A DNA stretch of 16,539 nucleotides from a virus: the UHGV virus genome UHGV-0073462, one strand, 5' to 3'. A model generated the notes under the pieces. That model was not told the DNA's origin and ran no database searches. It saw only the letters and a program-made list of their open reading frames with translations. Below are positions 283-15,905 of this stretch, piece after piece. Numbering within the stretch: position 1 is the first letter of the stretch; the number at the start of each line of letters is the position of its first letter. The position numbers and the translations under genes are program-made.

Positions 283-978
283 TCATGCTGCGGTAGCTCT
301 CCATGCAGCAAGCAGACCAGCAATCCACTGAACACCTTTTGGGGTGAATTTAACCTGCGTAAAAGCATGACCATTGCCCGCCTCGCCCGTTTTCACGCTA
401 AACCGCCCCGCATCCAGGTGATACGAGTAAGGCGTCATTTTTCCAGCGAGGCGATACATTATTCCGTTCTCCAACAAAAACAGCCGGAAATCGGTTTCTT
501 TGATACCGAGTAACTTAGCAACTTCCCGGAATCCCATCAGACCAGATGCTTCAACATAGTTATCAACAAATTCAGCCTTCGGCGCTGCTATTGCCAGTTG
601 ATTTTCCAGCACTGCTTTCTGTTCAGCCAGTTTTGCCGCAAATCGCAACGCCTCAGGTAAAGTCCGGGGGATCTGAATACCATGCATCGCTTTGAGTCTT
701 GCCAGCACAGAACGACGAACGGCCTTTGACTCCCTCATGCCAACGAGCATCATCTGGTCAAAATCCAGATCATAGTATGCCGTTCTTGTCTGGTTATTGT
801 TTAACCGGAATTTTTTTCCGGTTCCATCAAGCTCTAGCTCATCCTCAATTTTTGCAAGAAACTTACGCGGTTCATGAGGGACTTCTCCGGCTTCTGCCCG
901 GGCTGGATTAATAATGTTATTCAGAAAATCCAGACTACTCATGGATATTTCATGATCGACAGAAATCATCTCTTTCAT
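283..978 (-). CDS. phage antirepressor-like protein with KilAC (ANT) type C-terminal domain
   Basis: 231-aa ORF with ATG at 978 and SD AGGA 7 nt upstream. The C-terminal half (LPEALRFAAKLAEQKAVLENQLAIAAPKAEFVDNYVEASGLMGFREVAKLLGIKETDFRLFLLENGIMYR) resembles the KilAC/ANT domain of phage antirepressors. Assignment from memory of the family, not a search. Confidence 0.65.
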   Translation of the reverse strand: MKEMISVDHEISMSSLDFLNNIINPARAEAGEVPHEPRKFLAKIEDELELDGTGKKFRLNNNQTRTAYYDLDFDQMMLVGMRESKAVRRSVLARLKAMHGIQIPRTLPEALRFAAKLAEQKAVLENQLAIAAPKAEFVDNYVEASGLMGFREVAKLLGIKETDFRLFLLENGIMYRLAGKMTPYSYHLDAGRFSVKTGEAGNGHAFTQVKFTPKGVQWIAGLLAAWRATAA

Positions 979-3150: not shown

Positions 3151-3333
3151 CTACGGAATGAGAGGCTCTTCGGGTTTTGTTCCGGCTGACTGACTGGCGC
3201 TGATTTTCTCAGCGGCCCTTTTGTCAATCTGTCTGCACCAGAAATCTCTCACGACTCTGTACCCACCAGAAAGAAGATACAGCACACAAACTGCTGTACA
3301 GAAATACAATAAAATAAGCTGTAAAAATGTCAT
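3151..3333 (-). CDS. small membrane protein (60 aa), unknown function
   Basis: ATG at 3333 with strong SD GGAGGG about 5 nt upstream. N-terminal hydrophobic helix (LQLILLYFCTAVCVLYLLSGGY) followed by a charged tail. Confidence 0.5.
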   Translation of the reverse strand: MTFLQLILLYFCTAVCVLYLLSGGYRVVRDFWCRQIDKRAAEKISASQSAGTKPEEPLIP

Positions 3334-3476: not shown

Positions 3477-5420
3477 TTACGCGTTATTCACTTCCACCAC
3501 AATGCTGTCAATCAGCACCGGGTATGTTGCACCGTTAGTGATATCGGTCACGCGCAACTTGTCTGCCGTAAACGTGCCGACCGGAGACTGCGACAGCATG
3601 AACGGTGTCCCGTCCTGTCCATCAATCACCGGCGTCACCTGAATGCTGTTATTACCGGCAAAACGGAATGCCAGCGTATGCCATTCGTTATTAAATGCAC
3701 CGAATGAACCCAGCTTCGTGTTCTGGCCTGGATTACCCTTGTGGTACATCACGTTAAGGTCTGTGGCATCGCTCTGAACATAAAACGATGCCAGCAGGTT
3801 ATGACCGGCATTACCTTCCAGGGTAACCCCTTGTGGCAGGGCAGAAACCGGCCAGTACAGCGCCAGTGCGTACTGATTAGCCGTCAGTGTGCCGTCAACC
3901 TTAAACCGGCAGCTGACAAGACCACCTTTACCCAGCAGGTCTGCACCATTACCGGCATCATGCTCAAGGTACCAGGAGGATTTACCTGTTTCCTTGGTCA
4001 GTTTCATTGCCTTACCCCCGCTGGCTCCGGCATCATCCACGATTTGAGACTTGCCACCACCGGCAGTCCAGCCCTGTGGTGCCAGCTGTCCTTCAGACTC
4101 TGATGCCCGGTAAGCAAGCAACGTGCTCATTGTCGTTGTGTCAGCCGGTGGTGTGGACGGTTTTGATGGTGTATCAGGTGACGGCTTCTCATCCGGTGGT
4201 GTCACGGTCTGCCCGCGCATCAGTTCAGCCGTGCGCCCTGCATGGAGCATAATAGCTGAGGCCAGACGGTCTGAAATGACGCCCCTGCGTGCCCATGAGC
4301 TGAAATGGCTGTCACGCTGTGTCGAAACAAAACTGCCCTGGGTTCGGGATGCCGCACCGTAATACCCGACAGCCACAATATCCGGGTCTTCCGCCGGAGC
4401 ATTCGTTGGCGTGTTCTGTCCATTCTCATCCGTCAGGAACGGTACAAAGAAAATATTCTGTGCGGTCAGATTTTTATATGCGCCATAGACTGTTTCATAC
4501 TGCGTGGCATACGTGTTTTTCCAGTAATACGTGGTATCACCACAAATCCACGGCACCGTGCCAGCATTTCCACTCACGCACTGCGCTGCAAGTGGAGACA
4601 GGTCGGTTCTGAACTGCTGAACCATGGCTGTGAATAAACCATTATGCTGCTGACTTCCTGAAGCAAGGTCTGCCTCTCCCTGCATCCATACCACAGCCAG
4701 AAGTTTATTTTTCGGGTTCTTCGCCAGCGCCGCTCTGGTGCGACTGAGCAGGTCCTGATACAGGGGTTTACCGGCTCCCCAGCGTGAAGAATCAGCGGAA
4801 GCACCGCTGACCTCACTGAATGAGCCGTCGGCTCCGGTGGTAAATGCCGAACTGCCACGGCAACAGGACACCAGAAGTATACCGGCATTCTGCGGGATAT
4901 AAGGCAGCAGTTTTTTGGCAATATGCAGCCCCTGACCGACAGTCCCGTACTGGCCCTTACTCAGGTCTGCATGAGGATGGTTAAGTGCGCTCATGTCCTG
5001 AACATCATGCAGACAGTGGTCTGCCGGAATAACGTCATTGTATGCACAGGTATCACCACCCGGCGTCACAGTGCTGCGACGGGCCAGCTGCTTAATACGG
5101 GAGTCAGGTCGATCATAGGTCTGCGGCAGAGGAAGCCCCTCACCATAGGCCATACCGTTCGACTGCCCGGCCAGGGGAATAACGTAGTAATACTCCGGTT
5201 CAGTGATAGCCACTCCCGGAGAGCCACCAGCCCCTGTGTCGGGCACAACCACAGGCGTGGTCACATCACCCTCTGCGGCAATAGCCTGCATCAGTGTATA
5301 AGGAGTGATAGCCACAGGACTGCCAAATGGCTGCCACCCCTCCTTCAGTTTTTGAGTCAGTCGCTCCGCAAGGTCTGACGGCGACGCCGCCCTGACCACA
5401 TCGTAGTGTTTAAATGTCAT
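3477..5420 (-). CDS. nanS: prophage sialate O-acetylesterase (NanS-p / YjhS family; DUF1737 N-terminus plus SASA/SGNH esterase domain)
   Basis: 647-aa ORF with ATG at 5420 and SD GGGAGG. N-terminus MTFKHYDVVRAASPSDLAERLTQKLKEGWQPFG is DUF1737-like. Esterase motif YYYVIPLAGQSNGMAYGEGLPLP contains the GQSN catalytic-serine block. Position between Q/late leader and the holin matches NanS-p genes of Stx-type lambdoid prophages. Confidence 0.85.
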   Translation of the reverse strand: MTFKHYDVVRAASPSDLAERLTQKLKEGWQPFGSPVAITPYTLMQAIAAEGDVTTPVVVPDTGAGGSPGVAITEPEYYYVIPLAGQSNGMAYGEGLPLPQTYDRPDSRIKQLARRSTVTPGGDTCAYNDVIPADHCLHDVQDMSALNHPHADLSKGQYGTVGQGLHIAKKLLPYIPQNAGILLVSCCRGSSAFTTGADGSFSEVSGASADSSRWGAGKPLYQDLLSRTRAALAKNPKNKLLAVVWMQGEADLASGSQQHNGLFTAMVQQFRTDLSPLAAQCVSGNAGTVPWICGDTTYYWKNTYATQYETVYGAYKNLTAQNIFFVPFLTDENGQNTPTNAPAEDPDIVAVGYYGAASRTQGSFVSTQRDSHFSSWARRGVISDRLASAIMLHAGRTAELMRGQTVTPPDEKPSPDTPSKPSTPPADTTTMSTLLAYRASESEGQLAPQGWTAGGGKSQIVDDAGASGGKAMKLTKETGKSSWYLEHDAGNGADLLGKGGLVSCRFKVDGTLTANQYALALYWPVSALPQGVTLEGNAGHNLLASFYVQSDATDLNVMYHKGNPGQNTKLGSFGAFNNEWHTLAFRFAGNNSIQVTPVIDGQDGTPFMLSQSPVGTFTADKLRVTDITNGATYPVLIDSIVVEVNNA

Positions 5421-5547: not shown

Positions 5548-5602
5548 TTATGAATTCTGGTTAAAATCCATTCGATTATAAAAATGTATATCTCATGCTG
5601 TT

Positions 5603-5633: not shown

Positions 5634-5658
5634 CAAGAAAGCCCCTCCGGAGAGGGGC
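5634..5658 (-). terminator. intrinsic terminator at the end of repeat module B
   Basis: Minus strand: GC-rich palindromic hairpin GCCCCTCTCCGGAGGGGC followed by TTTCTTG. Confidence 0.5.
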
Positions 5659-5870
5659 TAAAGCCGCGTATCTGTATCATCATGCACATGGTGCCGGGTG
5701 CCTCCCGGTGAGTTCAGCCAGGTGCCACTAAACCCGCGTCATTCTCGTTTTGATAATCAGAGATTATACCGTCACCAGTCGCCCCTCCGCTCAGGGGGAT
5801 TCACCATGCGAAATTTTTTTAACAAATGCCCAGTCTGACAGGCAACTGTCAACTTACTGAATTGTGAGCA
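5634..5870. repeat. late-leader repeat module, copy B (direct repeat of 6116-6352)
   Basis: Blocks shared with copy A at a constant offset of about 482 bp: palindromic hairpin GCCCCTCCGGAGAGGGGC, CATGGTGCCGGGTGCCTCCCGGTGAGTTCAG, GCCCCTCCGC(T/A)CAGGGGGATTCACCATGC, and TTGAC(A/T)...CTGAATTGTGAG. Minus-strand reading runs from a TTGACA -35-like hexamer to the terminator hairpin about 200 nt downstream. Confidence 0.6.
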
Positions 5871-6115: not shown

Positions 6116-6352
6116 GGCACAGAAAAGCCCCTCCGGAGAGGGGCTGGAGAGTGGCGCTATGTGCCATTGCATGGTGCCGGGTGCCTCCCGGTGAGTTCAG
6201 TATCAGCACCTGAACCCGCACAGAAAGGATAAGGGTCGGTGACAAAACACCAGTTGCTGATTGCCCCTCCGCACAGGGGGATTCACCATGCCAGTTTCTT
6301 TTAACAAACTCCCCGCAAACCAGACAACAGTCAACCGCCTGAATTGTGAGGT
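6116..6352. repeat. late-leader repeat module, copy A (direct repeat of 5634-5870)
   Basis: Same conserved blocks as copy B in the same order. The TATAAT present in copy B is replaced by CTTATC here. Flanking sequence on the Q side (about 6353-6400) is still weakly similar to the inter-module spacer, so the duplicated unit is roughly 480 bp. Confidence 0.6.
6120..6144 (-). terminator. intrinsic terminator at the end of repeat module A
   Basis: Minus strand: GCCCCTCTCCGGAGGGGC hairpin followed by TTTTCTG. Confidence 0.5.
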
Positions 6353-6474: not shown

Positions 6475-6672
6475 TCACTGCGGAAGGCGTCTGTAACAAC
6501 CGAACTGATAGTCTGCCAGACCCGCCATAACCAGCTGGGTCAGTATTAACTGGCAGCGTTCGCGTGAAAGGTAAGTATTCTGCGCTATCTCCCCGACTGT
6601 CGCCGGTTCGGTGACGCTTAATTCATTAAACACCACTCTGGCGGTTTCTGTCATATCCTGCTGTTTTAGCAT
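6475..6672 (-). CDS. small hypothetical protein (about 65 aa), possible helix-turn-helix DNA-binding protein
   Basis: First ATG at 6672 (MLKQQDMTETARVV...); upstream SD is weak (AAGGG). The segment TVGEIAQNTYLSRERCQLILTQLVMAGLA looks HTH-like. The longer track ORF (to 6762) would run into the terminator after Q. Confidence 0.35.
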   Translation of the reverse strand: MLKQQDMTETARVVFNELSVTEPATVGEIAQNTYLSRERCQLILTQLVMAGLADYQFGCYRRLPQ

Positions 6673-6790
6673 GTCTTTTTCCCTTTTCCGGTTAACGTGA
6701 CATACCAATAACTCTTGTCTAAAAAGCCAGCAAGCTGAAAGACAGGTATTCACCACCAGCACGTTTACTGTACTGATGCGATTTCAGTCA

Positions 6791-6813
6791 TAAAAAACCC
6801 GCCAGGCGGCGGG
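6791..6813 (-). terminator. intrinsic terminator about 60 bp downstream of Q
   Basis: Minus strand: CCCGCC-GCCT-GGCGGG hairpin followed by TTTTTTA. Confidence 0.55.
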
Positions 6814-6873
6814 TTTAAGTTGTGTGGCGTAGTAACCACTCTTAACATACTGACATACTTTTTGCGGACCGCG

Positions 6874-7266
6874 CTAATCATTTTTTACTTTTTTGGGCAG
6901 CCAGTCGTCCATCTCCAGCCTTACACCCAGCATCGACAGACATCCGTCAATAAATCCTTCAGCAATCTGCATCTCAATTCGTATTGCCTTTTCGCTCTTC
7001 TTTCTTGTTCTGGCAATCTGCCTTTTTGATATGCGCAGCAGATAATGAGCTACCAGCAGCGAATACTCGTCCGGTTTTTTCTTCTTCAGGCGCGTAAGGC
7101 AGTTTTCGATGATAAGGCCGTCATCATCGCTGCAGGCCGGGCGAGGTTTAGCGGTGGATGGTAAAAGGCCTTTAAATCCAGCAGCTATCGGAGAATAGTC
7201 CACCCCGGCGTTACCACTTGCCGCCCATGCCCCCCAGCGTTCGAGAACCATCTGAATATCACGCAT
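6874..7266 (-). CDS. Q: late-gene antitermination protein Q (phage 82 / QuuD-like family)
   Basis: ATG at 7266 with SD GGAGA 7 nt upstream. Product begins MRDIQMVLERWGAWAA..., the N-terminus I recognise from 82-type Q / E. coli QuuD. Immediately upstream of the late leader and lysis genes. The track's longer start at 7281 is a non-ATG start I reject. Confidence 0.8.
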   Translation of the reverse strand: MRDIQMVLERWGAWAASGNAGVDYSPIAAGFKGLLPSTAKPRPACSDDDGLIIENCLTRLKKKKPDEYSLLVAHYLLRISKRQIARTRKKSEKAIRIEMQIAEGFIDGCLSMLGVRLEMDDWLPKKVKND

Positions 7267-7283
7267 CAACTTTCTCCACAAAA

Positions 7284-8273
7284 TCAGGACAGCACACCAA
7301 TCGCCAGCGCGCGATCGATAAAACGAAATATCAGCTCCAGCTGGGAGCCATACTTCTCTTCAAATGCCACGGTATCCGCATGCAGCTCGTCGTGATGCTT
7401 TCTGCACAAAGGCAACACAAAGAGGTCATGCGCTTTTGTACCCATTCCGCCCTGACCGTGACCTATCAGGTGGTGGGGATCATCAGCAGGTTTTCCACAA
7501 CATGCGCACGGCTGCGTCTTAACCCAGCGCGTGTACTTTTCATTAACCCAGCGGCGACGTTTTGGGCGTAACATAAAAGACTCCGGCGACTCCGGATCCA
7601 CTTTCAGCGCCAGCACCTTTTTCGCTTTATCCTGGATGATGCTGGTGGCAGGAACCGAAGGCACAAGGTCACTTTCCCGGGTGACAGACGGCACAACAGG
7701 CTTCGGTAATCTCAGTGCCTTACGGGCTGCGCTTTCCGGTAAGGCATCCGCCAGGTCATTACGAACCAGCCACCAGCACAGTTCCGGCATTGTCACAACG
7801 TGACTGTCATCAAAACCGAGATCCCGACGCACGACAGACAACACCCAGCGGGCACAGTTATCCGTTGCCATTGATTCCAGCCGTTCCGTGAACTGGTCAC
7901 GGAGGAGATTGTCACAGTGCCAGCACAGACGGATTGCGCCTGGCGCGTGCCGCATTGTGGTCATGTTCTCGCTGTGCCAGTCGGAATGAGGCCACTGACA
8001 GCCCTTTTCACGAAGTAACCAGCTCTCAAGGCATTCCACGCCACCAGCACGACGGATCACCGCCTCATTGCGGAACACGGCCCGAACGGCAGGATCATCC
8101 GCCAGCGGTTGTGATGCCGCCGGAACGGCACCACTGGCGAAAGATGAATAACGCTCCGGCTCAGGCTCCAGCAGGACACGCCCCTGCATAAACAGGGGCA
8201 TCAGCTCTGAACCTGGCCTGAACAATACGATCCCCATACGCGGGGCAATTTCAGGGGTCAGTAGTGCTCTCAA
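7284..8273 (-). CDS. nin-region protein with C-terminal DUF968 / HNH-like motif (YdfU-like)
   Basis: 329 aa. C-terminus CACCGKPADDPHHLIGHGQGGMGTKAHDLFVLPLCRKHHDELH carries the Cys/His pattern of DUF968 (HNH-like) prophage proteins. Probable TTG start at 8273 with SD GAGGT 6 nt upstream. Position directly before Q fits nin-region proteins. Confidence 0.65.
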   Translation of the reverse strand: MRALLTPEIAPRMGIVLFRPGSELMPLFMQGRVLLEPEPERYSSFASGAVPAASQPLADDPAVRAVFRNEAVIRRAGGVECLESWLLREKGCQWPHSDWHSENMTTMRHAPGAIRLCWHCDNLLRDQFTERLESMATDNCARWVLSVVRRDLGFDDSHVVTMPELCWWLVRNDLADALPESAARKALRLPKPVVPSVTRESDLVPSVPATSIIQDKAKKVLALKVDPESPESFMLRPKRRRWVNEKYTRWVKTQPCACCGKPADDPHHLIGHGQGGMGTKAHDLFVLPLCRKHHDELHADTVAFEEKYGSQLELIFRFIDRALAIGVLS

Positions 8274-8813: not shown

Positions 8814-9629
8814 TCAGTGAACGGTATCGAGCAGCTTTAACAGCTCAGGGAATCGGGATTCGAAGAAATGCGGCTGCGTCTCGCGCGGATTTGCAGGACT
8901 GGTGATGTTCTTGCCGAACATGCAGCCTTTCGCTGTCAGCGACCAGAATTTTTTGATGTTGTTAATCGCGGTACGGCTGTATCGTTCGCGCTGCTCGACG
9001 ATCCCCAGTTTCACCATCTGGTGATATGCCTGATTAGCCGTCAGGCGGATACCATACTGCTTCAGCAGTGCACTCAGCGACAGCGTAGGGCGGCTTGAAC
9101 CATCTGGCGCATCAGCAGGTGCATCAATGGCATAGATCGGCATAAGTTCAGGAAGACCAGCTACCTTTGATAATTTCTGGTATGCACCAAGTTTCGAGGA
9201 GTTTGACAGATTTAGAGTCTTTGCTGCTGATTCAAGCAGAATGACCCCGGATTTAATTTTGTCGGATGTGGTTTCTTCTGGTGATGAATTATGAAGCGCA
9301 TCGAAAGTACGTATCACTTTTAAGCTGAATGCCGGGCTGATCCACATTGCATATGCATAGACCAGCTCTTTACAGACATACGTCCCACCATTGCGCCCCT
9401 GAATGGTGATGACAGGAATACTACGGGAATCTCCCGTAGTTTCTTCTTCCAATAATTCCACAAGAGCCTTCGTTTCAGGACGACGCATAAACTCGTGAAC
9501 TTCCAGCGAACGGGAGGAGCGATTCTCACCAGCGGCAAGAAGAGCAGCTTTCTGAAGGTCGTTAAGACAGTAGTTAGATTCGAAGTACTGGCGCACAGAA
9601 ACGCCATCAATTACAAGCAACTGATTCAT
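8814..9629 (-). CDS. KilA-N domain protein, antirepressor-like (KilA-N N-terminus with ANT/KilAC-like C-terminal region)
   Basis: ATG at 9629 with SD GGAGA about 5 nt upstream. N-terminal region ...YCLNDLQKAA...GTYVCKELVYAYAMWISPAFSLKVIRTFD matches the conserved core of the KilA-N (APSES-like) domain. The C-terminal half resembles antirepressor C-domains, less certainly. Confidence 0.7.
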   Translation of the reverse strand: MNQLLVIDGVSVRQYFESNYCLNDLQKAALLAAGENRSSRSLEVHEFMRRPETKALVELLEEETTGDSRSIPVITIQGRNGGTYVCKELVYAYAMWISPAFSLKVIRTFDALHNSSPEETTSDKIKSGVILLESAAKTLNLSNSSKLGAYQKLSKVAGLPELMPIYAIDAPADAPDGSSRPTLSLSALLKQYGIRLTANQAYHQMVKLGIVEQRERYSRTAINNIKKFWSLTAKGCMFGKNITSPANPRETQPHFFESRFPELLKLLDTVH

Positions 9630-9727
9630 TGGTTTCTCCACAAATTTTTATCCACGAGCGGGACTGCACTCCCTTTTCGTTGATGCAGGATGAACTTACT
9701 GCGATTTTTAATAGTTATCAAGGATAC

Positions 9728-9745
9728 ACTGTTCATAAATACAGT
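9728..9745. promoter_or_regulatory. LexA-binding site (SOS box) in the promoter region of the KilA-N gene
   Basis: aCTGT-TCATAAAT-ACAGt fits the E. coli LexA consensus CTGT-N8-ACAG with an AT-rich spacer and correct flanks. It is the only such site I found in the window. Lies 80-100 bp upstream of the KilA-N start, next to -35/-10-like hexamers on the minus strand (TTGAGC-17-TATTAC, and TTGATA-17-TAAGTT). Confidence 0.6.
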
Positions 9746-9791
9746 ATCTTTAACGAGGTAATACCCAAATTTAGGGTGTTGCTCAATTCCG

Positions 9792-10187
9792 TTACCGAGT
9801 TGCTAATTTGCAACTCGCTTTTTCGTACTTACTGATAGTGATCTCGACCTTCCCTTCCGGGATAACCGGTCCCCACTCCACCAGCATTCTTTTCACCTGG
9901 CTGTCGTCTTCCCACACACCCGCGTGGGTCAGAACGTCAAACAGCGCCTTGTTATAGTTGTCCAGATCGCGGATCCTGTTATCCGGAGGAAACAACACAA
10001 TCTCTACTGAAGCAGGTGCCGACGTTGGTTTCGGCAGACGACGTAACTGCTCAACTATTGCTGCACACGCCGCGCTCTGGAATTTTCGCCCCGCCGCGCT
10101 TATCAGGCTCTTACCAGCAAACGCCCCTTTGTTAGGGTGTCGCCAGTACGTGTTCACGCTGGGCGGAAAAGGCAGTATTAGCTTCAT
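9792..10187 (-). CDS. rusA: Holliday-junction resolvase RusA (crossover junction endodeoxyribonuclease)
   Basis: 131 aa, MKLILPFPPSVNTYWRH...DLDNYNKALFDVLTHAGVWEDDSQV matches the RusA family pattern (PPS.N..Y; DLDN; D-D). ATGA overlap with the upstream gene. Confidence 0.85.
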   Translation of the reverse strand: MKLILPFPPSVNTYWRHPNKGAFAGKSLISAAGRKFQSAACAAIVEQLRRLPKPTSAPASVEIVLFPPDNRIRDLDNYNKALFDVLTHAGVWEDDSQVKRMLVEWGPVIPEGKVEITISKYEKASCKLATR

Positions 10188-10510
10188 ACTTTCAGGCCCC
10201 TCTCATGTAACCAGTGGGCTGCACGCAGCCTGGCGTTTGCCTCACCGGCAAGCAGGGCGCGGATAATCCCGACCGCCTCGCTGTCGTCGTCCTTCACCGC
10301 GGTATGAAGAGTGATACCCCGGGCCACGCCACGCTTTATCGTGATGACACCTTTTTTCTCCAGTGCTCGAAGATGCTCCACCGCTGCATTCACCGAACGG
10401 TATCCCAGCATGGTTGCCACCTCCTGATTGGTTGGCGGGAAGCCACGTTCTTTCTGATAAGAAATCAGCATATCCAGCACCTGCTGCTGGCATTGAGTTA
10501 ATGTCGTCAT
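10184..10510 (-). CDS. LexA N-terminal DNA-binding-domain-like protein lacking the S24 peptidase domain
   Basis: 108 aa. MTTLTQCQQQVLDMLISYQKERGFPPTNQEVATMLGYRSVNAAVEHLRALEKKGVITIKRGVARGITL aligns by eye with E. coli LexA residues 1-70, including recognition-helix residues (S-x-NAA-x-EHL). No catalytic Ser/Lys domain follows; a short helical tail instead. ATGA overlaps on both sides. Confidence 0.75.
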   Translation of the reverse strand: MTTLTQCQQQVLDMLISYQKERGFPPTNQEVATMLGYRSVNAAVEHLRALEKKGVITIKRGVARGITLHTAVKDDDSEAVGIIRALLAGEANARLRAAHWLHERGLKV

Positions 10511-11158
10511 GCCGCCATCTCCCTGACCAGTTTTTCCGCCTGCTGGCGAACCTGCGCCAGAAAGGCCTCACCACATGCCTCAAGTTCATCGCGCCCGATG
10601 TAGCTGATTGCCGCTCCCTTCCAGGTCTTGTCGAAAACAGCAATAGCACCAGCGAAGAAAGCACCTGTTGGCACCTGCTTTTCGTCTTTCGGGATAAACC
10701 AGGCTGGCAGTTCAAAACCAATACGCCCGCGAATAAAAGCAATATGATCTGCATCTTCCGGCCACCACACTTCGCTGGTGGCCGCTTTGATCAGGAAAAC
10801 ATAGCGCCCGCCTTTATCACGCATGGCACTGGCATGCTTCATGATGTAACGCATGCCGGTGATGTATTGTCCCTCATGCTGACTGGCGCGGCTGTACGGG
10901 GGATTACCAAAGGCAGCACCTTTAAGCTCCGCAAGACGTTCTGACCAGTCATGTGCCAGCGCGTTGTCTTCCGCCGTGTAATACGCGGCACATTTGGCGT
11001 TATCACCGTCAGTAAACAGATCCAGAACAAACGGGCCAAACAGGGTGTTAATTCCCCAGAAAATGTTGTCCGGCGTGCGCCACTGATCGCCCACTTCCTT
11101 CAGTTCATGGGCTGGTTTGTTCCGTAGTTCCACCAGCGCCTGGCAATATTTATTACTC
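10507..11158 (-). CDS. phage orphan N6-adenine DNA methyltransferase (Dam-type)
   Basis: 216 aa from ATG 11158 (MSNKYCQ...). Contains the NPPY catalytic motif (GAAFGNPPYSRAS). TAATG overlap with the upstream gene stop. No adjacent restriction endonuclease candidate. Confidence 0.8.
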
Positions 11159-11159
11159 A

Positions 11160-11648
11160 TTAAGCCCCCACGTAATTCCCTGACAGATACCACTCATCAC
11201 CCGCTACAGCGCGCTTTCTGCTTTTCCGTAAGCACCGCTCACGACGCGCCAGAAAATTGTTTCGTTCTGGCTGGGAGTGGCTTTCACGGAATGCCGCCAT
11301 CCACACGGTTGCAGCACGACGGTATAAGCCCCTGGACTCCAGTTCTTCCGCCTGGCGGGTCAGGCACAAAATCACCCGGGGATCGTTAGTGCCGACATAG
11401 AAATTGCGCACAGGTATGGTTTCAAGAACAGGTTGCAGTTTCTCCTCCTGCGATATCTCAGCCTGGTGTGGGAAATGTCTGCGTGTTTTCCCTTCACAAC
11501 AGTGAGCCACACGGCCACTCTGACGTAACTTGCTTGCTGACTGCAGAACGCACTGTCGTGAGTAACCAGCAAAAGCATCCGCAATGTCACCTGAAGTACA
11601 CCCCGGATGGGCTTCAATGAATTTCTGTACATCGTTCATCAGACTCAT
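11160..11648 (-). CDS. putative transcriptional regulator with PerC-like C-terminal motif and HTH-like N-terminus
   Basis: Segment RGLYRRAATVWMAAFRES...RRERC resembles the PerC-family signature (GLWRRAA..W) of PerC/Pch prophage regulators. N-terminus DVQKFIEAHPGCTSGDIADAF looks HTH-like. Start ATG 11648, or GTG 11654 overlapping the upstream stop. Moderate confidence in family. Confidence 0.5.
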   Translation of the reverse strand: MSLMNDVQKFIEAHPGCTSGDIADAFAGYSRQCVLQSASKLRQSGRVAHCCEGKTRRHFPHQAEISQEEKLQPVLETIPVRNFYVGTNDPRVILCLTRQAEELESRGLYRRAATVWMAAFRESHSQPERNNFLARRERCLRKSRKRAVAGDEWYLSGNYVGA

Positions 11649-11650
11649 GA

Positions 11651-12634
11651 TCACCCCCTGAATCCTGTCGGGATCTGGCTGTAGTCCACGTTGTCGTAAC
11701 TGGCTTTGAAGTACGGGTCCTCGCGTCTGGCTGCAGATACCGCAGGAACTTCCCAGGATTCTTCGAAATGACGATCCGGACCAAAGAACGTGACAGCCTG
11801 TTTCACAAATTGTGTGCCGCTATTGCCCATCGCAGATACCCAGCCCGCGTAGCGTTTCACACCTTCCAGCATGGTTTCGGGGTTTACCCCCTCGTTCAAA
11901 CGGGCTTTCCAGGCTTTGAAGGCTGCTGATTTTGAATTGCCACCAGCACGTTTGGGATATTCCTGCCAGGCCTGTTCAAATTCCGGTGAATATTCCTGTC
12001 GGGCAGAACGCGCTGGCGCAGACGCGTCAGCGGATGCATCAATAGTGTTTTTAGTCTCCGTTGTAATCTCTGTAGTAATCTCTGTATTTGTATCAACATT
12101 CGGCGTATCCCCTGTTCCGTTATGACGTCGGGGGGTGTTCCGTTTTAACGTAATAGCTGTATCGCTGATTGCATTATTGCTGTTACTTTCTGGCGAAACA
12201 GAAGAAGGTGTGGTGATGGCCGCAATTGCCTGTGGGTTGATCCCGACAAACAAAATATTGCTGCATTTCACCCCATCGAGCATTTCCACCGTGCGTAAAT
12301 CCAGAGTAATAAACCCTGCATCGCGCAGACGCTTCAGCGCATCTGCGGTTTCCCTTTTCCCGAAACCAAACTGCTCAGCAAACGCCTGGTAGCTTCTTTG
12401 CAGTTTGTCGCCCTGAAAACGCTTGCGATATCCCAGCAACGCTCCGGTGTGCTCATCCCTGACCTCTGTCGGGCGGTACCAGTAAACGATCTCTGAAAGC
12501 AGAGCGATAGCCGTCGCATCCGGACGCCCACTGGGTAGTCGAATATATTTCCACCAGGTCGCAGGTGTAACATTGCCGGAAATATTAATTTGACCAATAG
12601 CCATAACTTCCGGTGTGGGGGCGTAACGGCTCAT
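11651..12634 (-). CDS. putative replication initiation protein (lambda O-like position; family not firmly identified)
   Basis: 327 aa. Gene contains a tandem DNA repeat encoding TEITTEITTET, reminiscent of iterons embedded in lambda O. Conserved-looking C-terminal block EFEQAWQEYPKRAGGNSKSAAFKAWKARL. Sits in the cII-to-nin interval. Family call is inference. Confidence 0.5.
   Translation of the reverse strand: MSRYAPTPEVMAIGQINISGNVTPATWWKYIRLPSGRPDATAIALLSEIVYWYRPTEVRDEHTGALLGYRKRFQGDKLQRSYQAFAEQFGFGKRETADALKRLRDAGFITLDLRTVEMLDGVKCSNILFVGINPQAIAAITTPSSVSPESNSNNAISDTAITLKRNTPRRHNGTGDTPNVDTNTEITTEITTETKNTIDASADASAPARSARQEYSPEFEQAWQEYPKRAGGNSKSAAFKAWKARLNEGVNPETMLEGVKRYAGWVSAMGNSGTQFVKQAVTFFGPDRHFEESWEVPAVSAARREDPYFKASYDNVDYSQIPTGFRG
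12063..12086. repeat. tandem 12-bp direct repeat (2 copies of GTAATCTCTGTA) inside the O-like gene; candidate iteron / origin element
   Basis: Perfect tandem copies at 12063-12074 and 12075-12086, with degenerate flanking copies (TTTGTA, CCGTT). Confidence 0.5.
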
Positions 12635-13151: not shown

Positions 13152-14308
13152 TTGCGCCCCCTTACCTCTGAAGGGTTCAGCGACAAATTTATGAGACTGG
13201 CCAGTAGCGCCGCGTCGTTGATGCGGTCATACAGACTTACAGCCAGCGGGGATTCGGCTTTTGCCAACATGGGATAAAGCTGCTGCAGCCAGACCTTGTG
13301 GATTACCGACAGGTGGGAGTAAAGCACGCTGGCGTTATCTGCGGCATCGCTCAGCGTGGATGGCTTTGAAAGCAGTTTTTCCATCTGGTTAAAGGCATTG
13401 ATGTATGCCTCTTTGAACCGGGCAGCACGTTTACCCGTGAAACCCATAGCAAGAAACGCAAAACCGTCTCGTGTGATTTGATAGCAAGGGAGCTTGCGTG
13501 TACCACCGTTCGGTTGATTTACCGAAATCGATGTCTCCGCAAAATTGCGGGCACAAAACTCTGGGGAACAATCCAGAGTGCGGATCTTTTTCAGCACATC
13601 GTCGTGACGCTTGGAGAAGGAGTTGGCAACAGCCAAAGAAGTGGTAACGGCCTGGCCGTTGTCAATGGTGATTTCAGGTTGAGTGAGGGCTGGGTTCGTA
13701 GCCATGATGGCAGCCTCCGTTGACAGTGAAAAACTTCCACCACCGGAAACGCCAATTTCACTGGTGGTGAACTGGACGGGGTTGGCGTAACCGGCGTCAA
13801 CGGAGACCGGCGCACCTTTCGGTGCCCCCGCCCAGCCCACCATAATCTGGATGTGAGCAAATGCGGACGATAAAAAAGACGCTGGCGCGTCATACATCGC
13901 CGTTGACAATTTCAGGACGCCAATCCCGGCACCCGCTTTATAAGGTGCCTGAACAGTGTAACGTCCCGGAATGGCAGAATCAATATGCTGGTGGTCCTTC
14001 ACACTCAACAAAATCACGCCTGAATTTCCACAAAGGACTAAAGCACTCATGCGGGTAGTCTTTGCGAAGATAGATAACGCGCTGTGTTTCTGGCTCCCAA
14101 CGAATAACATGGACATAAAGCCCTCTTCCGTCACGAAACCAGCGGTTAAGTTCCTGCACAACTCGCCCCCCACAGTCAGGTAAAGTTCTCTGTGGTTACT
14201 TACAGCCAGGTGATTTGGTAATCTGCATTCATGCCGTAACAACAGGTGTTCAGCGACGCTGACCACCAGCTGTTGCGACAAACGGTTATTTGCCGTTAAA
14301 CTATTCAT
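13148..14308 (-). CDS. Rha-domain phage regulatory protein with a roughly 200-aa N-terminal extension of unknown nature
   Basis: Residues about 205-315 (MATNPALTQPEITIDNGQAVTTSLAVANSFSKRHDDVLKKIRTL...YQITRDGFAFLAMGFTGKRAARFKEAYINAFNQME) match the Rha (Phage_pRha) domain. The ORF stays open about 600 bp upstream to an ATG at 14308 that overlaps the CII-like stop (ATGA). No other long ORF covers 13750-14308. Confidence 0.6.
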   Translation of the reverse strand: MNSLTANNRLSQQLVVSVAEHLLLRHECRLPNHLAVSNHRELYLTVGGELCRNLTAGFVTEEGFMSMLFVGSQKHSALSIFAKTTRMSALVLCGNSGVILLSVKDHQHIDSAIPGRYTVQAPYKAGAGIGVLKLSTAMYDAPASFLSSAFAHIQIMVGWAGAPKGAPVSVDAGYANPVQFTTSEIGVSGGGSFSLSTEAAIMATNPALTQPEITIDNGQAVTTSLAVANSFSKRHDDVLKKIRTLDCSPEFCARNFAETSISVNQPNGGTRKLPCYQITRDGFAFLAMGFTGKRAARFKEAYINAFNQMEKLLSKPSTLSDAADNASVLYSHLSVIHKVWLQQLYPMLAKAESPLAVSLYDRINDAALLASLINLSLNPSEVRGRK

Positions 14309-15212: not shown

Positions 15213-15905
15213 ATGAACATAGGAAATCGAGTCAGACAACTTCGCCAGGCGAAGAACATGAAAATCGCCGATCTCGCTGAAGCAATAGGAGTGGATGCGG
15301 CGAATATCTCGCGCCTCGAAACAGGTAAGCAGAAACAATTCACTGAACAAGCCCTGAGTAATATTGCCAGGAGCTTAGGTGTTGATATTGCTGATCTCTT
15401 TACCTCAGACCTCAAAAGTAATACTGTATGTAAAAACAGTATTAGTGAGGATGTTGCGCAGGTGAAGGATGTATTCCGTATTGAAATGCTGGATGTCAGT
15501 GCCAGTGCGGGAAATGGCCTTATCCAGGGCGGTGATGTCATTGATGTGATTCATGCCATTGAATACAGAACTGATAATGCTGTATCGATGTTTGGTGGAC
15601 GACCAGCAAATCACATTAAAGTTATCAACGTTCGTGGGGACAGTATGTGTCCAACCATTGAGCCAGGAGATCTCATCTTCGTTGATATCAGTATCAATCA
15701 GTTTGATGGGGATGGTATCTATGTGTTTGGTTTTGATGATAAAATTTATGTCAAACGACTGCAAATGATACCTGACAAACTACTGGTAATTTCTGATAAC
15801 CAGATTTACCGTGAATGGGGAATTACCAGCGAAAATGAACACCGGTTTATGGTCTTTGGAAAGGTCTTAATCAGCCAGTCACAAACCCTTAAGCGACACA
15901 ATTAA
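15213..15905 (+). CDS. cI: CI-type prophage repressor (N-terminal HTH plus C-terminal S24 LexA-like autopeptidase domain)
   Basis: 230 aa. HTH (MKIADLAEAIGVDAANISRLETGKQ), S24 peptidase motifs (GDSMCPTIEPGDLIFVD; downstream KR in IYVKRLQ). Little or no leader before the ATG, as for lambda cI from pRM. Confidence 0.9.
   Translation: MNIGNRVRQLRQAKNMKIADLAEAIGVDAANISRLETGKQKQFTEQALSNIARSLGVDIADLFTSDLKSNTVCKNSISEDVAQVKDVFRIEMLDVSASAGNGLIQGGDVIDVIHAIEYRTDNAVSMFGGRPANHIKVINVRGDSMCPTIEPGDLIFVDISINQFDGDGIYVFGFDDKIYVKRLQMIPDKLLVISDNQIYREWGITSENEHRFMVFGKVLISQSQTLKRHN

Follow-up and report, generated by a model that had tools for sequence, protein, structure and literature searches.

A phage-encoded LexA DNA-binding-domain protein without a peptidase domain, conserved in lambdoid prophages of Escherichia coli

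LexA of E. coli dimerizes through its C-terminal domain. To our knowledge, gp6 of GIL01 (Betatectivirus) is the only phage protein consisting of a LexA DNA-binding domain alone that has been characterized. This truncated LexA homologue of 66 amino acids (aa) binds the sequence GaCACAnnTGTGaC and activates the late promoter P3 (PMC6182141). In LexA itself, the DNA-contact residues of helix III are Ser39, Asn41, Ala42, Glu44, and Glu45 (PMC3091678). In the LexA two-hybrid system, the DNA-binding domain alone does not repress a sulA-lacZ fusion, but it does so once fused to any dimerizing partner (PMC7595419). Phages also carry LexA-gated antirepressor modules, such as those of the Gifsy phages, coliphage 186 (Tum), and N15 (AntC). 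In these, an SOS box lies at the promoter of an antirepressor-like gene and host LexA acts as the sensor, so that no LexA paralog of the phage is required; as described, the modules have no LexA-like gene among their components (PMC3121763). Here, we analyze a gene of the virus genome UHGV-0073462 (16,539 nucleotides, hereafter "the window," meaning the whole stretch of DNA that was analyzed), the product of which is a LexA-type DNA-binding domain followed by a short tail of its own. The gene and the two parts of its product are located as follows:

10184-10510, minus strand: LexA-like gene encoding only the N-terminal domain of LexA (108 aa; ATG start, TGA stop at 10184-10186; PF01726, PHROG 362; ratio of nonsynonymous to synonymous polymorphism [pN/pS] 0.05).
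10304-10510, minus strand: codons 1-69, LexA-type winged helix-turn-helix (AlphaFold2 and Foldseek with 3jso; alignment to LexA).
10187-10303, minus strand: codons 70-108, tail with a short linker and two predicted amphipathic helices (residues 74-88 and 93-103; AlphaFold2, conserved hydrophobic positions).

A first-pass annotation of the window had taken the product for a LexA N-terminal domain, and both the profile search and the structure prediction bear this out. The Pfam profile LexA_DNA_bind (PF01726) matches residues 1-65 of the protein over its full length (profile positions 1-65 of 65; E=2.9e-19; 69 bits, with a cut-off of 23.7 bits), and E. coli LexA is the top phmmer match among the Protein Data Bank (PDB) sequences (1lea, 1jhh, and 3jso; E ~1e-15), with ~50% identity across residues 2-70. 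The AlphaFold2 model, obtained for the monomer from 25 family sequences, has a mean predicted local distance difference test (pLDDT) score of 83.5 and a predicted template modeling (pTM) score of 0.56. It folds into three helices (residues 6-22, 28-35, and 40-52) and a two-stranded wing (56-58 and 66-68), and Foldseek ranked the LexA-operator complex 3jso first, with a root-mean-square deviation of 1.1 Å and 50% identity over 68 columns.

The protein stops at residue 108, and the C-terminal S24 peptidase/dimerization domain with its Ser/Lys dyad is missing, as had been claimed. Pfam gave no match to the S24 peptidase (PF00717) in the 108-aa protein, and the NCBIfam lexA equivalog (TIGR00498) scored 70.7, below its cut-off of 110.95, covering model positions 1-91 of 203. 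The Ala-Gly autocleavage site of the strand-loop region is absent as well. Because the protein has neither the S24 domain nor a conserved cleavage site, it cannot be inactivated by RecA-stimulated autocleavage, in agreement with the initial proposal that it would be uncleavable under SOS conditions. The same two absences place it outside the canonical LexA family (TIGR00498/COG1974); it is a member of PHROG 362 and not an orthologue of gp6. In addition, we considered whether it might be a substrate cleavable in trans, since HMMER aligned its "RALLAGE" with the LexA cleavage site "GRVAAGE," with "LLAGE" (residues 86-90) pairing with "VAAGE." This candidate was rejected, as the model puts the motif in a helix and other family members do not conserve it, their equivalents being RAMVERESD, RALLTRKEN, and QEMIDDQPG; we regard the apparent relic of a cleavage site as a coincidence.

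The recognition helix (residues 40-52) reads SVNAAVEHLRAL, and its counterpart in E. coli LexA is SPNAAEEHLKAL. Four of the five helix-III contacts (S39, N41, A42, and E45) are kept, and alignment to LexA shows that the wing residues R64-G65-I66 are kept too. The recognition-helix residues had been described as those of LexA, which is correct for these four, whereas Glu44 is replaced by Val. Because the base-specific contact residues are retained, the protein can be expected to bind DNA in a sequence-specific manner.

The tail is attached where the dimerizing C-terminal domain of LexA starts. Its helices are predicted with pLDDT values of 87-89 over residues 81-100, and a hydrophobic stripe (positions 79, 80, 82, 83, 86, 87, 93, 97, 100, and 101) is conserved among 13 family members of 40-86% identity, in which A97 and L101 are invariant. 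According to both the alignment and the AlphaFold2 model, this family-specific helical hairpin bears no resemblance to the C-terminal domain of LexA; MAFFT placed the tail on LexA residues 108-117, which we judged to be an alignment artefact. The first-pass annotation had suggested searching a predicted structure for a dimerization element, and from the model we infer that the conserved two-helix tail (residues 74-103) is probably such an element.

The gene is under strong constraint. The 89 copies analyzed comprise 49 distinct nucleotide alleles, for which pN/pS is 0.05; 86 of the 89 encode the intact 108-aa protein. These values point to strong purifying selection on the reading frame, i.e., to a real coding frame and a functional gene. 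We found it in 2233 of 5426 complete E. coli genomes (41%; 2855 copies, 90-100% nucleotide identity), among them strain STEC2018-607 with a 100% match, and RefSeq labels the product "LexA family transcriptional regulator" or "LexA family protein." Proteins that are 95-100% identical are encoded by SfV (orf42, "unknown"), SfII, SfIV, mEp460 (gp46, "LexA DNA binding domain protein"), the cdtI phage, and the Shiga toxin (Stx) phages of types Stx2a, Stx2c, and Stx2k. Such a distribution contradicts the earlier view that the module is unusual for a lambdoid prophage. The profile phrog_362 spans the whole protein, tail included (residues 1-108 against profile positions 1-106 of 106, E=4.2e-59), and its counterpart in a Stx phage survey is pham 237 (PMC8136144). 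A HMMER search also uncovered diverged full-length relatives in other Gammaproteobacteria (40-52% identity, 105-135 aa). Stand-alone LexA DNA-binding-domain proteins are frequent in unrelated phages as well, as judged by BFVD matches. Six further proteins (P0131, P0133, P0151, P0156, P0160, and P0164; 140-220 aa) carry LexA_DNA_bind twice in tandem and lack an S24 domain. The feature as such is already known and widely annotated; new here are the conserved tail, the systematic substitution of Glu44, the measures of prevalence and selection, the invariable position of rusA next to the gene in the 80 loci compared below, and the observation that the SOS box described below is not a dedicated partner of the gene.

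The early region of the window lies entirely on the minus strand and is laid out as a lambdoid rightward early operon. Its order is cro, YmfL/CII-like, Ash/Rha-like, small open reading frames (ORFs), O-like, PerC-like/YfdN, Dam, LexA-like, and RusA, followed by a 150-bp spacer, KilA-N, a 171-aa ORF, DUF968/HNH, Q, a nanS-p-like esterase, and lysis genes. The genes that matter in what follows are:

11651-12634, minus strand: O-like replication gene, start of the overlapping early operon.
11160-11654, minus strand: PerC-like (YfdN) gene (PF06069), overlapping ORF.
10507-11163, minus strand: phage Dam, N6-adenine methyltransferase (PF05869, E=6.4e-45), stop overlapping the LexA-like start (ATGA).
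9792-10187, minus strand: RusA Holliday-junction resolvase (PF05866), start overlapping the LexA-like stop (ATGA).
8814-9629, minus strand: KilA-N domain gene (PF04383), for which ATG at 9629 is a likelier start than GTG at 9641 (GGAG 7 nt upstream of the ATG; RefSeq gene of 816 bp in relatives).
6874-7281, minus strand: Q.
15213-15905, plus strand: cI, S24-containing, divergently transcribed.

Every junction from the O-like gene through rusA is a 4-bp ATGA-type overlap (sequence-verified at 10507-10510 and 10184-10187), the LexA-like start is preceded by GGAG at a distance of 8 nt, and a consensus scan of the stretch from the O-like gene to rusA detected nothing resembling a promoter. Because of these three features, the LexA-like gene is predicted to be expressed in the delayed-early phase of lytic growth, after induction or infection, and not in a quiescent lysogen.

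We compared the surroundings of the gene, as well as the SOS boxes near it, in 80 IMG/VR loci that carry it. The rusA gene follows directly downstream in all 80, and it also adjoins family members of only 44-52% identity. Dam is directly upstream in 60 of the 80 loci; 19 have no Dam, and a PerC-like gene abuts instead. Placement between replication genes and rusA/DUF968/Q is shared by the window, SfV, vB_EcoM-720R4, mEp460, mEp390, and metagenomic loci. In loci L182, L194, and L217, and in Salmonella phage ST64B, the LexA-like gene is cleanly absent and Dam is joined to the same RusA via an ATGA overlap, while Klebsiella phage ST846-OXA48phi9.1 and Edwardsiella phage EPP-1 carry the gene without an adjacent rusA. 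Collectively, this arrangement marks the gene as a discrete optional cassette of the nin region of lambdoid prophages. The natural Dam-RusA junction variants (L194 at 6978-8023, L182, L217, and ST64B, locus L010, at 6544-7823) could serve as natural deletion controls.

Strong SOS boxes were located with a position weight matrix (PWM) built from 21 E. coli SOS boxes, with which sites scoring at least 17 arise 0.005 times per shuffled window. Two were found in the window:

9727-9746, no strand assigned: SOS box CACTGTTCATAAATACAGTA, exact CTGT-N8-ACAG, PWM score 21.7, in the 150-bp rusA/KilA-N spacer, ~440 bp from the LexA-like gene.
15422-15441, no strand assigned: second strong SOS box, TACTGTATGTAAAAACAGTA, PWM score 25.8, inside the cI ORF (15213-15905, plus strand).

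The box at 9727-9746 had been assigned to the same translationally coupled operon as the LexA-like gene. The gene itself is indeed coupled through ATGA overlaps with dam and rusA, but the box sits in the untranslated spacer, before the uncoupled KilA-N gene, and belongs to the upstream region of the latter, outside the coupled operon. With its SOS box, TTGATA-N17-TAAGTT, and GGAG-ATG, the spacer looks like that of a LexA-gated KilA-N gene, the product of which is a possible antirepressor. Variant spacers keep both the box and the downstream TTGATA-N17-TAAGTT element. The box-bearing spacer (window 9642-9791) is present in 186 of the 5426 E. coli genomes, O104:H4 C227-11 and S88 among them; in most relatives, the KilA-N gene follows ~20 bp after rusA, without a box.

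The second box is located in the part of cI that encodes the linker, ~210 nt from the start of the ORF, and is near-consensus, with one mismatch from the umuDC box. It recurs at the same codons (T-V-x-x-N/H-S) in the cI homologs of mEp460, Salmonella ST64B, Klebsiella P7641, and a metagenomic phage, at 70-76% nucleotide identity (L009 31970, L010 11611, L011 11136, and L004 836). The flanking linker residues vary while the box codons persist, which suggests selection on this box at the DNA level. It could act as a LexA roadblock or as an internal promoter, and either LexA or the LexA-like paralog is a possible ligand. Our literature search found no paper on an SOS box inside cI.

Further sites of this type were noted. 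A third exact CTGT-N8-ACAG, CTGTGGTTACTTACAG, at 14190-14205 of the window, falls within the Ash/Rha-like gene, and SfV has the identical site (L001 9714); with its GC-containing spacer and a matrix score <12, it is probably a coincidence of coding sequence. Downstream of Q, in the late region, strong boxes recur (L001 2886, L002 12905, and L009 41021), one type of which overlaps the very start of the coding sequence of a "DNA methylase" gene, and the window has a weak one at 3292-3311 (score 16.0). Another box, TACTGTAAAAATATCCAGTT, is found ~+967 bp after the start of Q in loci L203-L256, a lineage without the LexA-like gene. Two boxes precede the dinI-like gene of mEp460, at 23255 and 23283. 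Lastly, loci L007 and L008 have a strong box at 5560-5579 (ACCTGTACATTCATACAGTA, score 21.0), just after an inserted reverse-oriented toxin/immunity pair and ~440 nt upstream of a distant family member (P0137, 42% identity); in this lineage, the LexA-like paralog may itself be under LexA control.

We propose, with a probability of roughly 0.4, that the LexA-like protein is made during lytic growth and acts as a RecA-proof, tail-dimerized binder of CTGT-type operators. The tail would take the place of the C-terminal domain of LexA as the dimerization element, and the dimer would bind CTGT-type (SOS-box-like) palindromes in a manner that RecA is unable to reverse. The phage could thereby re-occupy LexA operators, whether of the host or of the phage, after the host LexA has been cleaved. 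The two very strong boxes of the window (21.7 and 25.8) are plausible targets, and 51 of the 80 gene-carrying loci have at least one strong box within ~8 kb. A non-inducible LexA mimic had already been suggested in the first-pass annotation, and it is the most plausible single mechanism because the protein retains the fold, the wing R64-G65-I66, and four of the five contact residues; what is not supported is the pairing of the mimic with the box at 9727-9746. A more far-reaching version seems doubtful to us, namely that a mimic carried by ~40% of E. coli strains dimerizes via its helical tail early in lytic growth and re-silences LexA operators once host LexA has been destroyed. Were it true, the phage would override the SOS response: besides the SOS functions of the host, the protein would shut down colicin and lysis operons and the LexA-gated antirepressors of co-resident prophages, and the SOS-boxed genes of the phage itself would be silenced too, including transcription through cI.

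Several observations speak against the proposed binding of SOS-type operators, beginning with the boxes themselves. A strong SOS box within ~8 kb is lacking in 29 of the 80 gene-carrying loci, and modules that carry a box without the LexA-like gene are known from L182, L194, ST64B, and Klebsiella phage P7641. In L182 and L194, this is a box of the 9727 type, together with a KilA-N gene. Because the box-bearing spacer occurs in 186 genomes versus 2233 for the gene, L182 and L194 have no LexA-like gene, and 29 of the 80 loci have no box, the box and the gene are not linked, and the box at 9727-9746 is a candidate target at most, incidental and not a dedicated partner. The boxes near the gene come from three distinct mosaic modules, one within cI, another in the rusA/KilA-N spacer, and the third at a methylase gene after Q. 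Among the Q-anchored loci, a box upstream of Q was present in 16 of 21 with the LexA-like gene versus 2 of 40 without it. We rejected this enrichment as evidence of an association, as it reflects two phage lineages (Q 99% versus 92% identical) and the loci are non-independent; the two exceptions, with a box and without the gene, are the informative ones.

The DNA-binding surface adds to these doubts. As a control for helix III, we used 80 genuine proteobacterial host LexA proteins (of which 79 are full length and contain an S24 domain) of similar divergence from the query, obtained from a scan of genome contigs with the family alignment, the matches of which were almost only genuine host lexA genes. 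Glu is found at position 44 in 78 of these 80 (98%), Glu or Asp at 45 in all 80, and Ala42 and His46 likewise in all 80. In contrast, position 44 is never Glu in the 13 phage-family members (it is V, A, F, T, L, or Y), and Glu45 is kept in ~60% of them; Glu45, Ala42, and His46 all vary in diverged members, with the Citrobacter member P0086 reading NTIAGH. Helix III is thus LexA-like in the E. coli clade and, across the family, is not under the constraint that acts on LexA. Since Glu44 is replaced family-wide, an SOS-box specificity identical to that of LexA cannot be assumed, and the operator specificity of the family may be relaxed or shifted. Moreover, the AlphaFold2 prediction is of a monomer only (pTM 0.56), and we infer the dimer. 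Our literature search found no functional study of the family, the mentions being at the level of annotation. Finally, gp6 itself binds a palindrome that is not an SOS box and activates transcription (PMC6182141).

This last precedent leads to the main alternative, which we hold tentatively, namely that the LexA fold has been turned to a phage-specific non-SOS site from which it activates or represses a phage promoter, for example in delayed-early or late timing. A truncated LexA homologue that recognizes its own operator and switches on P3 is just such a case, and the family-wide loss of Glu44, the variability of helix III in diverged members, and the many gene-carrying loci without a nearby SOS box would all fit. 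However, helix III of the E. coli clade departs from LexA at one contact residue only, while gp6 differs at nearly all of them and gives no BLASTP alignment to our protein. In addition, we counted all 4- and 5-mer palindromes (spacers of 4-12 bp) in the window and five diverse loci. Only SOS arms, immunity operators, and a GC-rich hairpin repeat recurred; neither an alternative operator nor an enriched motif of the gp6 type (GaCACAnnTGTGaC) emerged. An unlikely explanation is that the protein is not a transcription factor but an accessory factor of recombination or replication that works with RusA, targeting or modulating junction resolution. The overlapping rusA gene in 80 of 80 loci, its persistence beside members of 44-52% identity, and the location among DNA-metabolism genes (O-like, Dam, RusA, and DUF968/HNH) agree with it, but the same RusA is encoded without the LexA-like gene in L194, L182, L217, and ST64B, the gene occurs without adjacent RusA in ST846-OXA48phi9.1 and EPP-1, and the retained base-specific contacts indicate sequence-specific binding.

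We consider it quite improbable that the protein serves the lysogen, where an uncleavable SOS repressor expressed from the prophage would damp the host SOS response or prophage induction, in line with the first-pass suggestion that the SOS-box gene is kept repressed. Its uncleavable architecture would suit this role, and the SfV record does annotate a putative dam promoter inside orf40, but the gene is embedded in an overlapping chain of early genes with no promoter-like site detected upstream, constant repression of the box-controlled KilA-N gene would make the box pointless, and the box and the gene are not co-inherited. The idea of a dominant negative that titrates LexA through mixed dimers, also put forward in the first-pass annotation, finds nothing in its favor beyond the homology of the N-terminal domains. 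LexA dimerizes via its C-terminal S24 domain, which our protein lacks, and the hairpin in its place is unlike that domain, so that we regard titration as very improbable indeed. The tail-dimerized binder of CTGT-type operators is the reading that we retain.

Other features of the window lie apart from these questions. Downstream of Q, a nanS-p-like gene (3477-5420, minus strand) encodes 647 aa with DUF1737, SASA esterase, and DUF6645 domains, and past the lysis genes there is a second antirepressor-type gene (ANT/KilAC domain; 283-978, minus strand). The GC-rich palindrome CCCCTC-N4-GAGGGG occurs in four copies (5642-5657, 5782-5797, 6128-6143, and 6264-6279), compared with 0.38 expected when up to one mismatch is allowed. 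All four fall in the ~1.45-kb stretch from Q to the nanS-p-like gene, where tRNAs and stx are located in Stx phages; neither tRNA nor stx is present in the window.

A strongly conserved, uncleavable LexA paralog is present in 41% of complete E. coli genomes, with many Shiga-toxin prophages among the carriers. Should it bind SOS operators, the phage would encode a brake on the SOS response, with a bearing on prophage competition, on the induction of Stx phages by antibiotics, and on SOS-driven mutagenesis. If its specificity has shifted as in GIL01 gp6, it would represent a second independent case of phages reusing the LexA fold for their own regulation.

Set against the known systems, the protein of the window belongs to the family that comprises PHROG 362, SfV orf42, mEp460 gp46, and pham 237, from which nothing in its sequence sets it apart; these names are annotation labels only. 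The strong box upstream of the KilA-N gene, which is also found where the LexA-like gene is absent, makes this part of the locus a candidate LexA-gated antirepressor module; the antirepressor role is putative. With the LexA two-hybrid fusions, as described in PMC7595419, the protein would share in principle the combination of a LexA DNA-binding domain and a heterologous C-terminal dimerization module; those fusions are artificial and have the authentic LexA helix III, whereas the module here is natural, ~35 residues long, and presumed to dimerize. With E. coli LexA (1JHH, 3JSO; TIGR00498), the protein of the window has in common the N-terminal winged-helix fold, S39, N41, A42, E45, and the RGI wing. 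It differs from LexA in lacking the S24 domain, the Ser119/Lys156 dyad, and the conserved Ala-Gly site, in the replacement of Glu44, in having a two-helix tail instead of the C-terminal domain, and in being encoded by a phage in an early lytic operon. Like GIL01 gp6, it is a phage-encoded LexA DNA-binding domain without a catalytic domain, and gp6 is likewise expressed from an early operon. The two proteins are ~35% identical in a forced alignment with no BLASTP alignment, and their hosts and virus types are unrelated. Unlike the protein described here, gp6 is tailless and has a rewritten recognition helix (SHKTAHRYLMQL) in which K38 is essential, the equivalent position being Asn41 in the LexA-like protein. 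The helix III of the latter, SVNAAVEHLRAL, is far nearer to that of LexA, SPNAAEEHLKAL, than the SHKTAHRYLMQL of gp6 is.

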